A DNA stretch of 52,514 nucleotides from Candidatus Pacearchaeota archaeon (GTDB lineage Archaea; Nanobdellota; Nanobdellia; Pacearchaeales; GW2011-AR1): assembly GCA_050124795.1 (NCBI GenBank), contig JASFEO010000007.1, positions 1 through 52,514 of the forward strand, in the 5' to 3' direction. The notes under the pieces were generated by a model. That model saw nothing but the letters and a program-made list of their open reading frames with translations. It had not been told where the DNA came from and did not search any database. Shown here one piece after another: positions 7,190 to 35,521 of this stretch. Each line of letters begins with the position of its first letter. Position 1 is the stretch's first letter. Position numbers and translations under genes: made by a program.

Positions 7190-7278
7190 TTTGATTTGAA
7201 TCCTACATAAACTCAAGAACAATTTATTTTCGTAAGTCGGGCAATTCCGTGGTAGAAGCATAATCCTACCGAGCGCGT
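7190..7278 (+). repeat. tRNA-linked mini-element 1 ending in a 17-bp copy of the tRNA-Arg 3' end
   Basis: AATCCTACCGAGCGCGT at 7174-7190 and 7262-7278; inverted T-arm copy at 7193-7206. Confidence 0.8.
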
Positions 7279-7396: not shown

Positions 7397-7493
7397 TGGG
7401 GATGAGAACCCGAGGGTTCGACGAGTGACTTCGTGGTAGAAGTATCGCCTGCACAGAACCTTCGTGCGAGGTCGCGAGAACCAGTCCGCGCAT
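7397..7493 (+). repeat. tRNA-linked mini-element 2: GC-rich, multi-hairpin, ending in a copy of the tRNA-Gly 3' end
   Basis: CCAGTCCGCGCAT (7481-7493) vs CCGGTCCGCGCAT; inverted T-arm copy at 7399-7412; internal hairpins. Confidence 0.75.
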
Positions 7494-26369: not shown

Positions 26370-27127
26370 AAATTTTTTAAATTTATACTACTTTTAAAGA
26401 TTTGTGTGTTAAAAATATTTTTTTCTTTAATCATTTTCCTCTTTAATCTTACTAATTCTGCAATCATCAAAATAGGAGTGTGCAATTTCATTCGGGTTCC
26501 TTCTTTATGTTCCCATGCAAGCGGCAATTTATAGATGCTGTTCTTTTTTTTCTTTGCTTTATAAAGTAATTCTACATCAAACACCCACCCTGTTGATTTT
26601 AAATCTTTAAATAAATCTTTGGCAACATTTTTTTTGAATCCCTTAAATCCGCATACAGTATCCTTTATCCCAATAGGAAAAACAACATTTGCTAAGATGC
26701 TAAAAATAGTTCCTGTCAAAACTCTTAAAGGGGGCTGTTCTATTTTAGAATCCTTAGAACTTCTGTTCCCAATAACAATATCAAATCTCTCTAATCTTTT
26801 GGTCATTCTTGGAATTTCTTTTGGAGAAATTGAACCATCAGCGTCAATAAAAAGTATGTTATCCCCTCCTGCTTCAAGAACCCCTTTTCTTACTGCATAA
26901 CCTTTTCCGCGGTTTTTTTGATAAGTTATAATCCTGATTTTTTCGGCTATTGATGAAATTTTCCTTATATCTTCTAATTTTTTCAGGGTTTTATCCTGAC
27001 TTCCGTCATCAACAAAAATTATTTCGTAATCTTCTAATTTTTCATTTGCAAATTCAATTAAATCTTTTGCAAATTTTTCAATTCTTTTTTCTTCATTATA
27101 TGCTGGAACTATTATACTTAATTTCAT
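26366..27127 (-). CDS. GT2, dolichyl-phosphate glycosyltransferase-like
   Basis: PAYNEE, VDDGSQD, NRGKG, DAD, DT.CGFK, FDVE. Confidence 0.92.
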   Translation of the reverse strand: MKLSIIVPAYNEEKRIEKFAKDLIEFANEKLEDYEIIFVDDGSQDKTLKKLEDIRKISSIAEKIRIITYQKNRGKGYAVRKGVLEAGGDNILFIDADGSISPKEIPRMTKRLERFDIVIGNRSSKDSKIEQPPLRVLTGTIFSILANVVFPIGIKDTVCGFKGFKKNVAKDLFKDLKSTGWVFDVELLYKAKKKKNSIYKLPLAWEHKEGTRMKLHTPILMIAELVRLKRKMIKEKNIFNTQIFKSSINLKNL

Positions 27128-28578
27128 TTCCCTCTAACCAAGAACAACCCCCTTTTAATAGCTTCATTAAATCCCTCCCTCTTTGAGTATGCAATAAACT
27201 TTCCAGCTAACTCTAATTCTCCTTTTATCGATTTTAAAATTCCCCTCGGTAGCCACTCAAAAAAATCCTTAAGTTCATCATACTTTTTTGCTTCATTAAA
27301 TATTTCTGGCAATCTTCTCAATTTTAATTTCTCATCTGTTGTCTGAAAAAGGCACATATAGTGGGCTTTTTTTCTTTCCCATTTTGTAAAATCTTTTGTC
27401 TCAACAGTTGGTTCTTCACAAATAAAATCATTATCCCTTTGGCTTGTTTTGCCAATCTCATTATAAAAAACTCCATTATTTTTCATAAACCAATGTCTCA
27501 TGGGGGTATTCTTATAGGGGATTGCCATGTTCCAAAAAACACCTGGGGGGTCATGCTTTTTTACAAATTCTATTGTTTTTTTAATTCCTTCAAGATTATC
27601 TTTTGGAAGACCTATAACAAAAGAGAGGTTGCCAAGCATGTCATGCTTTTTTAAGAGTGTGATTGCATTTTCAATATCTTTTAATGTTTCCCCTTTGTTT
27701 ACCAGTTTAAACACCTCTGGATTTGCAGACTCAACTGCAACTCCCATTGACTCACTACCAGTTCTTTTTAGCAAAACAACTAATTTTTCTGTTACGTCAT
27801 CTCCTCTAACGTTTAGTACTGAGAGCCTCATCCCAATTTTTCTTTTAGAATAAAGTTCCAGAAATTTATAGAATCTGTCCTTTATTACCAATGCATTATC
27901 ATCTTGGATTAGAATGTGCAGATTTGGATTTAGATTTTTTTTTGCCTCTTCTAGTTCTTTTATGCAATCTTCTTGGTCTCTTGCTCTCCATTTTTTTTGA
28001 CTAACATATGCAACAGGACAAAAGCTGCAGTTGTAAGGACACCCTCTTGAAGTCATTATTGGATAACCTCTTATCTTCTCTTTTCCATAAAAAGAGCGGT
28101 AGTCAGGATAAGGAATTTTGGTTATATCCACTATTTTATCTGATTGAATAATCTTTGGCTTTATTTCTCTTTTGGAATTCTCAAAAATCGAATTCACTAT
28201 GTCTTCTGCTTCTCCCCTTACAATATAATCAATATCAAGATTATTTTCTAAGTCTTCTGGATAAAGACTAGCATGGGGTCCTCCAACAACAAGAGGAATT
28301 TTTTTGTTTAAGCTTCTTATCTGTTCTATAATCTCTTTTGATTCTTTTGTATTAGCAGTAATCATGCTCAGACCAATTGCATCTGGAGAAAATTTTTTCA
28401 TAAAATGTGTAACTTGCGGAGCCTTATGAATCAATTGGTAATCTACGACTAAAACTTTATGCCCCTTTTTTTTTAAGATTGCAGCCAATATTGCAAGCCC
28501 CATCTGGGGAGTATTCACATAGCAAGTTTCTCTGCGCGGGTTTATTAATAGAATTTTTTTTGAAACGAATTTTTTCAT
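27124..28578 (-). CDS. B12-binding radical SAM protein
   Basis: VGGPHASLYP, SRGCPYNCSFC, DDN. Confidence 0.92.
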   Translation of the reverse strand: MKKFVSKKILLINPRRETCYVNTPQMGLAILAAILKKKGHKVLVVDYQLIHKAPQVTHFMKKFSPDAIGLSMITANTKESKEIIEQIRSLNKKIPLVVGGPHASLYPEDLENNLDIDYIVRGEAEDIVNSIFENSKREIKPKIIQSDKIVDITKIPYPDYRSFYGKEKIRGYPIMTSRGCPYNCSFCPVAYVSQKKWRARDQEDCIKELEEAKKNLNPNLHILIQDDNALVIKDRFYKFLELYSKRKIGMRLSVLNVRGDDVTEKLVVLLKRTGSESMGVAVESANPEVFKLVNKGETLKDIENAITLLKKHDMLGNLSFVIGLPKDNLEGIKKTIEFVKKHDPPGVFWNMAIPYKNTPMRHWFMKNNGVFYNEIGKTSQRDNDFICEEPTVETKDFTKWERKKAHYMCLFQTTDEKLKLRRLPEIFNEAKKYDELKDFFEWLPRGILKSIKGELELAGKFIAYSKREGFNEAIKRGLFLVRGK

Positions 28579-31868: not shown

Positions 31869-32336
31869 TTTAAATTCTTAGACAGAAATGCTTTTTCAGG
31901 TTTACTGAAGACACTTTAGACTTTTTTTAGAATTAATCTTGATATTTTGTGAAACATAGTTCAATTTTGTAAAGATATATAAAACCTTTTTTCCAAATAA
32001 ATCTTATGGATAAAAAAGGGGCAAATATAATTTTAATCTTCATCCTATTTATTTTTATCTTCTCCATTGTTTCTGCCACTGATGCGCCGTTATTAATTTA
32101 TCGGCAAAAAGCACTTGTTGCTCAGGATAAAATTGAATTATCACATGATTTTTCAGTTTCTCTCTTCGGTGGCTCTGCTTCTTATTCTTATCCTCTTGAA
32201 ATTCCCGAGGGGGTTAATGGATTAAAACCAAATGTTCAAATTTTTTATAATCATCAAAAATTAAAAGACCCTCAGACATTTTTAGGTTCAGGCTGGGTGT
32301 TAGCACATTGTGAAACGTTTGGGATTTTTAACTTAA

Positions 32337-33233
32337 TTAAAACCTCAACTCTTCTTTCTTTAAAATATCTAATAAAAATTTAACAAATCCTCTTAAATTT
32401 CCTCTGTATTGGGCATCTTGTAGAACTTCATAATATCTAAATTTATTCTTCTTAGGAATGTTTACCATAGGGGATTTATTTTTATACAAAATAAAATTCA
32501 TTAAGAGTCTTCCGACTCTGCCATTACCGTCGACAAAAGGATGAACTCTTTCAAATTCAGTATGAAAATGCGAAGCTAAAACTAAAGGATGGATTTTCTT
32601 TTTGTTTGTAGAATACCATCTTAATAAGGTAGCCATTTGTTTTGGAACTTCATGAGGTTTTGGAGGAATGCTCCTTCCGACAAAAACCTGAACAGTTCTA
32701 TATCTTCCAGTTTGAGAAACCAAGTCTTCTCTTAAAGTATTCGCGACAATAAACATATGCAGTCTAAGAATAAATTCTTTGGTTATATCTCCTTTGTAAT
32801 TAAGCATAAAATCAAATGCTTTTTTATGATTTAAAACTTCATGAATTTCTCTTAATGATTTTTGTTTTGGAACAATTCCTTCAAAAAGAAGGTGGGATGT
32901 TTCATCAAATGTAAGTGTATTGCCCTCTATACCTGTAGAGTCATGAGTAAATAAAGAAGCAAAAGCCTCGTAACGATTTTGAAAGTTCTCTTTTGGTTCT
33001 TTTGCAAAATTTACTTTAAGTTCTCCTAAGAATTTTTCTTCATTTGGAGTGAGGGCAACATCAAAAATACTTAGTTTTTTATCTGCTTCTTTTTCTTTAT
33101 TTGCAAGTTCTTTTTTATTCAAATTGATTCCCAGATAAATTCTTTCTTTTGTGACCTTTCCATTTACCTTTACAGATTTTACTCTGTAATAATATTTTCT
33201 TTTATTCTTTTCTTTAATCTCTGTATACACCAT
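32337..33233 (-). CDS. Fic-domain protein, class II type, with basic N-terminal extension
   Basis: HPFVDGNGRVGR catalytic motif; STGIEGN inhibitory motif. Confidence 0.95.
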   Translation of the reverse strand: MVYTEIKEKNKRKYYYRVKSVKVNGKVTKERIYLGINLNKKELANKEKEADKKLSIFDVALTPNEEKFLGELKVNFAKEPKENFQNRYEAFASLFTHDSTGIEGNTLTFDETSHLLFEGIVPKQKSLREIHEVLNHKKAFDFMLNYKGDITKEFILRLHMFIVANTLREDLVSQTGRYRTVQVFVGRSIPPKPHEVPKQMATLLRWYSTNKKKIHPLVLASHFHTEFERVHPFVDGNGRVGRLLMNFILYKNKSPMVNIPKKNKFRYYEVLQDAQYRGNLRGFVKFLLDILKKEELRF

Positions 33234-33241
33234 GAGTTTTA

Positions 33242-33283
33242 TACGTCTACCTTATTTATAAATATTTCTTTTTGGTGGACGTA
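33242..33283 (-). promoter_or_regulatory. Fic promoter: TATA box flanked by an inverted repeat (candidate operator)
   Basis: TACGTCTACC...TTTATAAATA...GGTGGACGTA (9/10 inverted match). Confidence 0.6.
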
Positions 33284-33342
33284 ACGTAGTCACCATATTT
33301 TTTAGAAAGAATTAAGAATGATAATCTCTTAAAATTAGTAGG

Positions 33343-33447
33343 ATGGAATTTGAAAAACCTTCAATGCAAACAGTTTTTGTTCTTGGCGGAATTTTTGCAC
33401 TATGGTTTGTCAAAGCAAAAGCCTTAGACCCCTCAAATGTTTCATGA
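33343..33447 (+). CDS. 34-aa hydrophobic peptide inside the insertion
   Basis: MEFEKPSMQTVFVLGGIFALWFVKAKALDPSNVS*; below the ORF-track cutoff. Confidence 0.35.
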   Translation: MEFEKPSMQTVFVLGGIFALWFVKAKALDPSNVS

Positions 33448-34045
33448 TATCGCTCGAGTCGGTCGGGGCGTTTGCACAAACATATATTGGCCGTAATGTT
33501 GAAGATAGTTTTAGTTATACTGGTGATGATAAATATTTTTTATACTTTAATGGAAATTATTATGATTTAGTTTATATTGGAAGCGGGGAATATGCCACTA
33601 AACGAGATACATTTATGAAGATAACAAAAGAAACTAGCGGGAACAATACTTATGATAATTATTGGCTTGTAAAAACCAAAGATGGCACAAATTATAGATT
33701 GGGTTACAATAACAATTCTGAATTGGTCTCAAATTTGCAGGATTATGCTGTGAGATTGAGTGTTGATTTAATTCAGGATACCTATGGCAATTCTATTTTT
33801 TATGATTCTTATGAAGATGAAAGTCTTTTAGGTTCAAATATTGATTCAACTTCTGTAAAATGGAATGGTTTTTACTCTTATGCCCATTATCAAATAACTG
33901 CTCAAAGAATTGACAATATAACTGTCAAAGATTACATCTGGCCTGAACCAACTTATTCAATAGATTCAGAACAATCACAATAAATTTTGTACAGAATACT
34001 TAGAATCCCTAAATCTTTATAAGGAGTAAACTATTCCCGAGTTTT

Positions 34046-35521
34046 ATGGCAATTAAACCAAAAAAGATCCTATTTGTTTATCTCGGAATAGAAAATGAAT
34101 CATTGGGTATAGAATACCTTTCCGCAGTGCTTAAGAAGCATGGTCATAAAACAGATCTTATTTTAGAATATCCAGAAGAAAAAAATTTTAAAGATAGATT
34201 ATATAAAAGAATAAATGAATTTAATCCTGATTTTATTGGTTTTTCAGTTGTTACAGATGACTATTCCTGGGCGTCTAAAACTGCAAAAATAATCAAAGAG
34301 GAATATTCTATCCCGATTATTTTTGGAGGGATTCATGTGACTTCTTGTCCTGAAGAAGTGATAAGCAATAATTTTGTTGATTATATTGTAAGAGGAGAAG
34401 GAGATGCTGCCCTTCTTGAAATAATTAATAATCCAAAGAATACTAAAATTAAAAATATGTGGACAAAAAAGGGGGGAAAGATAATAAAAAATCCAATTAG
34501 ACCCCTTGTTACTGATTTAGATAGTTTGCCTTTTCCAGATAGAATGCTTTTCCATAAAGAAGCACCTTATCTTAGCGATGTATACCATTGCATGACCAGT
34601 CGAGGTTGCCCTTTCCATTGCACTTATTGTTTTAATAATTTTATGAAAAAATTATACAAAGATAAAGGGTCTTGGTTAAGAAGAAGAAGTGTTGAAAATG
34701 TTATTGAGGAACTTAAGATAATGAATAAAAACTTAAATTATAAACAGATTCTTTTTGTTGATGATTCTTTTACAAGCAATGCTAAATGGTTGAAAGAATT
34801 TCTTAAAAGATATAAAAAAGAGATAAACGTTCCATTTAAGATTATTGCCCATCCTCTTTTAATTAACGAGGAGATAGTTTCATTATTAAAAAAAGGAGGG
34901 TGCATTAGAATTCAATTAGGAGTTCAAACTCCTATAGAAAAAATAAGAAAGGAAATTTGCAAAAGACACGATTCTAATAAAGCAATTGAAAAAGCAATAA
35001 AGATTATCCACAAGTATAAAATAATGGTGCAGATCGACCATATCTTTGGTTTGCCTTCTGAAAAAGTTAAAGACTATGAAAAAGGGATAGAATTTTATAT
35101 TAGACTTAAACCTAGTTTTATCTCATCTTTTTTCCTGCAATATTATCCAAATACCGAGATAATCAATGTTGGAAAAGAATATGGATTAGTAACTGACGAG
35201 GAAATTTCTGAGACCATTAAAGGTAATGTAAGTTATATGGATATGGTCCATAGAAGAATATCGAACAAAGATATTCTTGCAATTTCTAAATTTTTCTGTT
35301 GGATTCCAATTCTGCCGAGAAACCTTAGCAGATTTATATTAAGAAAAAAATTATATCTTAAAATATTTAAAAATAATAAATTAGATAAAATAAATAAAAT
35401 CCCTTATATGTTGCAGCATCTTTTTTCAATTGAACTAATAAAAACAGCTATTTTATCAAGAAAAAGAAAAAAAGATATGAAGGATTACAGGAAAATTGTT
35501 TTCAATAAGAATAATTCTTAA
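34046..35521 (+). CDS. B12-binding radical SAM protein
   Basis: FGGIHVTSCP, GEG, SRGCPFHCTYC, DDSF. Confidence 0.92.
   Translation: MAIKPKKILFVYLGIENESLGIEYLSAVLKKHGHKTDLILEYPEEKNFKDRLYKRINEFNPDFIGFSVVTDDYSWASKTAKIIKEEYSIPIIFGGIHVTSCPEEVISNNFVDYIVRGEGDAALLEIINNPKNTKIKNMWTKKGGKIIKNPIRPLVTDLDSLPFPDRMLFHKEAPYLSDVYHCMTSRGCPFHCTYCFNNFMKKLYKDKGSWLRRRSVENVIEELKIMNKNLNYKQILFVDDSFTSNAKWLKEFLKRYKKEINVPFKIIAHPLLINEEIVSLLKKGGCIRIQLGVQTPIEKIRKEICKRHDSNKAIEKAIKIIHKYKIMVQIDHIFGLPSEKVKDYEKGIEFYIRLKPSFISSFFLQYYPNTEIINVGKEYGLVTDEEISETIKGNVSYMDMVHRRISNKDILAISKFFCWIPILPRNLSRFILRKKLYLKIFKNNKLDKINKIPYMLQHLFSIELIKTAILSRKRKKDMKDYRKIVFNKNNS

Follow-up and report, generated by a model that had tools for sequence, protein, structure and literature searches.

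Why does a gene for a Fic-domain protein lie precisely within the frame of an unrelated archaeal gene, on an insert that encodes no recombinase of its own? The case comes from a 52,514-nt stretch of DNA (hereafter the window; contig JASFEO010000007.1 of assembly GCA_050124795.1) of a Candidatus Pacearchaeota archaeon, whose genome assembly comprises about 1.06 Mb in 38 contigs with a completeness of 90%. Here a gene resembling the N-terminal part of SpvB (SpvB-N-like) is interrupted by an insert of 1171 bp that carries the Fic gene on the opposite strand. The answer that we favour, as somewhat probable, is that the insert is a recombinase-less integrative cassette that entered a pseudo-attachment site and was moved by an enzyme acting in trans. 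Below we give the evidence for the insertion, for the tRNA-derived end of the insert and for the family of cassettes to which the insert belongs, and weigh the other ways in which it could have arisen.

The precision of the insertion can be read from the host gene. A sequence-only reading of this DNA had proposed that removal of positions 32308-33478 would restore the host frame, and it does: the upstream and downstream frames differ by one base, so deleting 1171 bases brings them into register, and alignment with a homologue agrees. The reference for both gene pieces was P0002, a 240-aa homologue with a precomputed SpvB domain. The N-terminal piece aligns with its residues 8-100 at 40% identity (E 3e-27), residues 1-110 of the C-terminal piece match its residues 101-210 at 55% identity (E 2e-36), and the two pieces meet between P0002 residues 100 and 101 with zero residues missing or added. 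Because the pieces abut in this way, the insert breaks the gene without loss or gain of a codon, and the flanks are contiguous on an SpvB-like homologue; their failure to be so had been named, together with ends that occur nowhere else, as the ground for rejecting the proposal. The host stretch at the insertion site encodes a conserved G-x-G-W motif, and the open reading frame (ORF) that starts at 32006 reads 25 codons past 32307 into the insert before it meets a stop.

The interrupted gene is itself short. A search of 1.84 billion representative proteins with the C-terminal piece gave 258 relatives at E<=0.001. Of the 150 listed, many have lengths of 1,000 to 3,166 aa, and only residues 1 to about 115 of the query match them, at about positions 100-220 of their own sequence. 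Beside these the interrupted gene is thus only an N-terminal fragment, or else a short form, from a family of giant secreted proteins; it has about 215 aa of homology followed by an unrelated 50-residue tail. Its C-terminal piece matches SpvB (PF03534) with an E-value of 0.0043, under the family cut-off, and a search with this piece did not find the host gene in 60 relatives.

The insert itself encodes little beyond the Fic protein. The absence of a recombinase, also part of the earlier proposal, was borne out, since the sole family match is Fic (PF02661, E 2.5e-23, 83.2 bits against a cut-off of 24); a 55-aa ORF at 33312-33479 has no Pfam match. The Fic-domain motif HxFx(D/E)GNGRxxR is present in the translation as HPFVDGNGRVGR. 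The protein matches the PADLOC models SoFic (2.9e-38) and PDC-S04 (1.2e-39), and its score with the NCBIfam SoFic equivalog model, 41 bits, is so far under the cut-off of 550 that we regard it as a SoFic relative and not an equivalog. At E<=1e-10 it has 1872 relatives, and of the 120 listed most are exactly 298 aa long; the closest come from Woesearchaeota, Pacearchaeota, and Nanoarchaeota. The base composition of the insert is like that of its surroundings. The 1.06-Mb genome contains no Fic paralogue and no second copy of the insert, every other match scoring at most 41 bits.

When the Fic loci are compared as DNA, homology runs from about 50 nt upstream of the ATG through the stop codon, with nothing beyond; in a search of 401 genomes of the order, the strong matches covered query positions 2-49, about 33237-33284 of the window. 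Homology restricted to promoter and ORF indicates that the Fic gene travels as a unit, and the conserved upstream region, which has a TATA-like word within an inverted repeat (Table 1), is probably the cassette's own promoter. In six of the loci (L026, L037, L040, L042, L048, and L049) this inverted repeat (TACGTCTACA ... TGTAGACGTA) occurs a second time right behind the stop codon of Fic, at a distance of about 950 nt, and the next gene there is seemingly under the same operator-like promoter.

Relatives of the Fic gene indicate where such a unit is usually found. We collected 142 Fic loci, 62 from reference genomes and 80 from metagenomes; the 113 full-length loci among them were counted without removing duplicates, and the two collections share at least six sequences. 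Of these 113, 31 have a tRNA gene no more than 700 nt from Fic, and the 3' end of the tRNA points toward Fic in all 31 (27 upstream on the same strand, 4 downstream and convergent), with 13 anticodon types represented. GC-rich repeats (at least 12 nt with at most one mismatch) bracket Fic at 27 of 85 distinct loci, compared with 3, 3, and 2 of 85 in controls that pair the flanks of different loci, and the spans that they bound measure 945-1434 bp. The blocks of identity are mostly 12-16 nt long and sharp at both sides. At tRNA-adjacent loci they start in the 3' strand of the T-stem and end 1-3 nt past the tRNA, and these canonical repeats always equal the local tRNA, across all 13 anticodon types.

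Some of these units are stacked. In L149 a tRNA-Glu(TTC) repeat recurs at 500, 936, 1930, and 2562 and bounds a small-ORF cassette, the Fic cassette and a MazE/PemK cassette in an array, and in L141 tRNA-Asn is followed by a hairpin module, then Fic and then a ParE-family toxin cassette. A homologue of the tyrosine recombinases of the genome under study was found in the flanks of 2 of the 142 loci. On these comparisons, the Fic module is a recurrent unit with discrete bounds, found at many tRNA genes. How its repeats arise, carried by the cassette or made on insertion, is a question on which an arm shared by three loci bears: ACGAGACTTA stands directly before the distal repeat in L025, at tRNA-Ser(CGA), in L039, at tRNA-Ser(TGA), and in L084, for which no tRNA was identified, and the repeats of L025 and L039 differ, each equalling its local tRNA.

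The window's copy carries a tRNA end as well. The 12 nt of TCGGTCGGGGCG near its right end match without a difference the 3' end of the tRNA-Glu(TTC) encoded in the same genome (C10:43098-43171), where they make up the 3' strands of the T-stem and the acceptor stem together with the discriminator base. The 10-mer GGTCGGGGCG occurs at only two places in the genome, the insert and the 3' end of this tRNA, and TCGGTCGGGGCG is also the repeat that bounds the cassettes of the tRNA-Glu array in L149. The segment lies in a GC hairpin (CGCTCGA/GTCGG/TCGGGGCG) to which the sequence-only reading had drawn attention as a structured end. The hairpin exists, but it is not unusually stable when set against shuffled sequences (z about 0.2 with RNA parameters and 0.0 with DNA parameters), and its sequence identifies it as a copy of the tRNA-Glu 3' end.

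In this copy the tRNA-Glu 12-mer is present at the right end only, and the left side is a look-alike within a protein-coding gene, identical to the right-end 20-mer of the insert at 15 of 20 positions. Likeness of this degree is rare. Across 2,121,574 genome positions on both strands, 15 or more of 20 bases agree with the right-end 20-mer at only four: the insert end itself (20/20), the tRNA-Glu site (17/20, ending TCACA), the host flank (15/20, ending GCACA), and one more (15/20). Among positions with at least 14 of 20, the ending GCACA is found only at the insert's right end and at the host flank. All mismatches between these two 20-mers lie to the left of GCACA, which places the exchange in GCACA or at its right edge. 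The host stretch resembles, by chance, a tRNA end followed by GTT-N-GCACA, and from this comparison the choice of target does not appear to have been random.

The termini of the insert are structured beyond chance. The pairing between the left end and a subterminal right segment, as first described from the sequence, was confirmed: 17 bp, of which 13 are Watson-Crick and 4 are G-T, with no other mismatch. When the first 40 nt were compared with the last 120 nt, none of 2000 dinucleotide shuffles matched this helix, and in natural DNA it was matched in none of 424 windows of 120 nt and none of 230 equally spaced pairs; its duplex energy lies merely in the 4% tail. All four G-T pairs fall on one strand, which is at most a hint of a single-stranded form. 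The joint of an excised circle would indeed be a palindrome with one extra base (9 bp plus an extra G at the termini), and an equal or better terminal palindrome occurs in 282 of 200,000 random 1171-nt genome segments; folding of this joint on the plus strand is weak (z -1.46 with RNA and -1.19 with DNA parameters). The arms TGTT/AACA of the empty site are likewise present but weak, with 4-bp arms in 1429 of 200,000 random 14-mers.

Table 1. Positions of the insert, of its parts and of the gene that it interrupts, numbered along the window.
Feature	Position	Strand	Remark
N-terminal piece of interrupted SpvB-N-like gene	32006..32307	+	100 aa, signal-peptide-like start
Putative pseudo-attachment site, host 20-mer like the insert's right-end 20-mer	32288..32307	+	15/20 identical to 33459-33478
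Left GCACA copy, shared core at or beside the joint	32303..32307	+	
Left terminal inverted-repeat arm ATTGTGAAACGTTTGGG	32307..32323	+	first 10 bases also mirror the right terminus
Insert (Fic cassette plus one GCACA copy)	32308..33478	.	1171 bp
Fic gene, SoFic-like, motif HPFVDGNGRVGR	32337..33233	-	298 aa, PF02661
Putative promoter region, TATA-like TTTATAAAT within inverted repeat TACGTCYACC / GGTRGACGTA	33242..33283	-	
Non-coding stretch particular to this copy	33285..33432	.	about 150 nt
Subterminal right inverted-repeat arm CTCAAATGTTTCATGAT	33433..33449	+	
tRNA-derived segment TCGGTCGGGGCG	33459..33470	+	inside GC hairpin 33451-33470
Right terminus CGTTTGCACA	33469..33478	+	right GCACA copy at 33474-33478
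C-terminal piece of interrupted gene	33477..33983	+	168 aa

The reading that we favour joins these observations as follows. The cassette would consist of its own promoter, the SoFic-like Fic gene and a short attachment region, and would belong to a family that, judging from the loci compared here, normally lies directly behind DPANN tRNA genes between repeats of 12-16 nt, sometimes in arrays with toxin-antitoxin cassettes. It would have existed as a circle with one site derived from the tRNA-Glu end, the joint reading ...TCGGTCGGGGCGTTTGCACA then TTGTGAAACG..., and a recombinase supplied in trans would have carried out a single reciprocal exchange at GCACA between this circle and a chromosomal look-alike site, which lies in the G-x-G-W codons of the SpvB-N-like gene fragment. 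The sequence-only reading had proposed a non-autonomous cargo element moved in trans through a single-stranded or circular intermediate; the cargo unit, its precise insertion and its non-random ends stand, and the intermediate stays conjectural.

Several enzymes encoded in the genome are candidates for the trans-acting role. These are XerA on contig C5, at 234.5 bits against a cut-off of 220; a XerA-like paralogue on C3, at 200.8 bits; a Ccr-like serine recombinase of 263 aa on C6, matched best by CcrB (model 9.5e-40) and CcrC; and two IS200-type Y1_Tnp (TnpA) genes (C26:1630-1992 and C27:8518-8871). The three recombinase genes all lie away from tRNA genes, and that of the serine recombinase has unrelated neighbours and no tRNA on its contig. 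Neither Cas1 nor TnpB was found in the genome at its completeness of 90%. The two Y1_Tnp genes belong to IS200-like elements with tnpA only (C26:1530-2070 and C27:8450-8960), and the C26 element has matching CGCAGCTCTGCTGCG-type subterminal hairpins at both ends.

A number of observations weigh against an attachment-site insertion by such an enzyme. The genome's own tRNA-Glu site, a better match at 17/20, is unoccupied. The joint lies 4-8 nt past the tRNA-like segment, compared with 1-3 nt in canonical cassettes, and a joint outside the canonical position sets this event apart from the canonical one. The repeats of the family, sharp and in every case matching the local tRNA, would fit a target-site duplication equally well. 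None of the 26 other repeat-bounded Fic cassettes examined has the 17-bp helix, and no result ties any of the candidate recombinases to the cassette. Nor was an empty site or a circle joint present in the contigs of one sequencing run, probably the source of the assembly, in which one contig spans the insert; contigs drop rare variants, so that this absence decides nothing. The exact strings of both hypothetical joints are also absent from the assembly.

The ends of this copy are, in addition, unique. Further copies of both ends, whose presence elsewhere the sequence-only reading had put forward as a check of its proposal, were found neither in the genome itself nor in the 142 Fic loci nor in the 401 genomes of the order, where only the promoter part matched strongly. 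The right-end half gave short, weak matches in those genomes, with E-values from about 3e-5 upward. The 29-nt left end and the right-hand 190 nt or so have no counterpart in the 142 loci. For the non-coding stretch that is particular to this copy there is no homologue in the same loci, no Rfam match and, in the 401 genomes, weak short matches only. Since these ends were seen nowhere else, a single event carries the attachment-site reading. The insert and the closest Fic locus, L073, have GGGGCGTTTGCA(C/T)A in common, which in this one pair may be a lead to common ancestry of the site.

Among the alternatives we give most weight to capture by microhomology, then to an IS200/IS605-like element and then to a casposon-like unit. 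Capture would be a one-off accident, in which a circle or fragment from a tRNA-linked site, perhaps of another strain, was caught at GCACA by microhomology-assisted illegitimate joining with no dedicated enzyme. We think this unlikely, but it draws strength from the joint outside the canonical repeat block, from the uniqueness of the ends and from the state of the host gene: with about 215 aa of homology and an unrelated tail, where many of the relatives listed have 1,000-3,166 aa, it is itself only a fragment, and an insertion there would cost little. Such an accident sits less well with two joints that are both exact and reciprocal, with a target among the three best look-alikes of the insert end in 2.1 million positions, and with a palindrome centred exactly on the joint, rare by chance as noted above, which microhomology joining does not predict. 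Movement as a single strand, by a Y1 HUH transposase acting in trans, is less likely again. PATEs of the IS200/IS605 group have no terminal duplication, insert 3' of a short word like their right end, carry subterminal hairpins and receive their transposase in trans; on this model the insert would have landed 3' of GCACA, with its folded ends guiding cleavage. GCACA does stand directly left of the element and as its last 5 nt with no further target duplication, although one event cannot show a target preference; a segment able to form a hairpin ends 8 nt short of the right terminus, the 17-bp helix departs from Watson-Crick pairing only in four G-T pairs, all on one strand, and two Y1_Tnp genes are at hand. 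PATEs have similar hairpins at both ends, however, whereas the insert has no left-end hairpin resembling the right-end one, which is not unusually stable and is explained as a tRNA-Glu end. The insert is also single-copy, the end hairpin of the C26 tnpA element (CGCAGCTCTGCTGCG) and the palindromes flanking the C27 tnpA are unrelated to its ends, and a target likeness of 15/20 exceeds a 5-nt target.

Casposons have a Cas1 casposase, terminal inverted repeats and a target duplication of 14-15 bp. By analogy with casposons, which make long target duplications at tRNA 3' ends, a transposon-like unit of this sort could have reached the SpvB-N-like gene with an old duplication and 8 nt of flank carried along. 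The canonical repeats, 12-16 nt long, sharp on both sides and equal to the local tRNA at 13 anticodon types, would suit such a unit, as would the conserved arm ACGAGACTTA that abuts the distal repeat at two different tRNA-Ser genes and in L084. We nevertheless consider it improbable, as no Cas1 was found in the genome (completeness 90%), terminal inverted repeats are not a feature of the family (0 of 26 related cassettes), and the right-hand block in the window differs from the host at 5 of 20 positions and so was not made by this insertion. Removal at the RNA level, which the sequence-only reading had left as an option, is very unlikely. An intron in the host transcript, removed by the archaeal splicing endonuclease or through self-splicing, would make sense of a 17-bp pairing with G-U pairs on the host sense strand that brings the junctions close, and the junctions allow a 4-bp helix between two 3-nt bulges to be drawn. 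On its two sides, though, this helix is flanked by no more than 1 and 0 base pairs, and none of 726 bulge-helix-bulge arrangements in 6 junction registers combines a 4-bp central helix with both outer helices. The insert has no Rfam match, and none to a group I or group II intron at the gathering score or at E<=1; it bears an antisense gene with its own putative promoter; and its relatives are DNA insertions at tRNA genes bounded by tRNA-end repeats.

Repeated tRNA ends are not confined to Fic cassettes in this genome. A family of hairpins of 60-90 nt, for which a covariance model built from 12 copies finds 18 matches in the genome, lies in most instances directly 3' of tRNA genes. The core reads ..CGAGCAACTTCGTGGTAGAAGT, a variable loop, then ACTTCGTGCGAGGTYGGGAG; in the alignment 96% of cells are paired, with compensatory changes at 7 of 13 pairs. 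Two copies are in the window (7191-7278 and 7397-7492), and those elsewhere include C1:58930-59070, C2:83941-84076, C3:78701-78884, and C4:43384-43481; two further copies with a (CT)n apical loop lie off tRNA genes (C2:1146-1237 and C2:38165-38254). At the 7 tRNA genes checked (6 in detail), the last 12 nt or so of the tRNA are repeated after the hairpin, which makes repeated tRNA 3' ends a general trait of the genome. The 63-nt intron of tRNA-Gln(CTG) (C3:77486-77621), in the canonical position, is a member of the same family, and the modules therefore look like tRNA-intron-like elements beside duplicated tRNA 3' ends. The hairpin family has no Rfam match; 12 of 60 other genomes of the same taxonomic family carry it, against none of 40 that represent other families in the order. 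Around the interrupted gene in the window, glycosyltransferase-like and B12-binding radical-SAM-like ORFs (33984-35521 and 27124-28578) were recognised by eye from their translations.

Among known systems, the nearest to the cassette are integrative elements linked to tRNA genes, together with remnants of them that lack a recombinase. Recombinase-less derivatives of integrative elements that target tRNA genes are known as cis-mobilizable elements (CIMEs) and depend for their mobilisation on the integrase of a related autonomous element with the same site; for the Fic cassette no such partner was identified. The Fic relatives resemble these elements in their position on the 3' side of tRNA genes, in their tRNA-end repeats and in their stacking, and the insert in the window has no recombination genes of its own. 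The term CIME appears in ICEberg 2.0 (PMC6323972). Tycheposons, in the islands of Prochlorococcus, are described in their preprint as lying on the 3' side of tRNAs with a full and a partial tRNA copy flanking them, as stacking in tandem through repeated integration, and as leaving degenerate remnants that persist with more partial tRNAs (bioRxiv 10.1101/2020.12.28.424599). The Fic unit differs in being a single gene of about 1.0-1.4 kb with its own putative promoter and repeats of only 12-16 nt, in occurring as the same cargo at 13 anticodon types with an integrase homologue near 2 of 142 loci, and, for the window's copy, in residing in a protein-coding gene.

Other systems share single features with the cassette. 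Integron cassettes are small, mostly single-gene and recombinase-less, form arrays rich in toxin-antitoxin genes and have imperfect inverted repeats that act on one folded strand; in their attC sites the paired R''/L'' and L'/R' boxes stand together at the 3' end of the cassette with GTTRRRY boundaries, and the promoterless ORF is expressed from Pc with IntI adjacent. The Fic cassettes are likewise small single-gene units without recombinase, stacked with toxin-antitoxin cassettes, whereas the arms of the insert lie at its opposite ends (32307-32323 and 33433-33449) and not both at the 3' end, its boundary heptamers GTTAGCA and GTTTGCA do not fit GTTRRRY, and Fic has a conserved promoter-like region, no adjacent recombinase and a tRNA end as its site. 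IMEX (integrative elements exploiting Xer) such as the CTX phage have no recombinase and are inserted by host Xer, their attP consisting of two inverted sites folded in one strand, with partial identity to the target sufficing. The cassette is similar in lacking a recombinase in a genome with XerA and a XerA-like paralogue, but no result links Xer to the cassette. The Ccr-like serine recombinase invites comparison with SCC-type cassette arrays, which are run by large serine recombinases (Ccr), but its 263 aa are about half the length of a Ccr.

Full-text searches by word, restricted to open-access papers and preprints, gave no description of such a system, which is weak evidence of its absence from the literature. 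The window contributes a case in which the cassette has gone into the body of a protein-coding gene and both partner sites can be read, and in which the ends of the cassette are unusually structured. DPANN archaea have tiny genomes with few recognisable mobile-element genes, and it is in such genomes that a Fic gene with 1872 close relatives occurs at ever-changing places. A precisely bounded insertion outside a tRNA gene yields, for one event, both partner sites and the joint at single-base resolution, which is what a recombination assay for the enzyme needs. More tentatively, and on balance we consider it doubtful, DPANN archaea may possess an integron-like form of gene capture in which a chromosomal enzyme acting in trans shuffles self-promoted defence and toxin cassettes at the T-arm and 3' end of nearly any tRNA. 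If so, the window would record an off-target event that exposes what the enzyme needs, a G-rich acceptor-like stretch followed by GTT-N-GCACA, and the strand-specific G-T pairs would suggest a cassette site folded from a single strand, as in attC and the attP of the CTX phage. If one chromosomal recombinase does serve many tRNA ends, it would amount to a platform for gene capture other than integrons, in a domain of life where such platforms are barely known.

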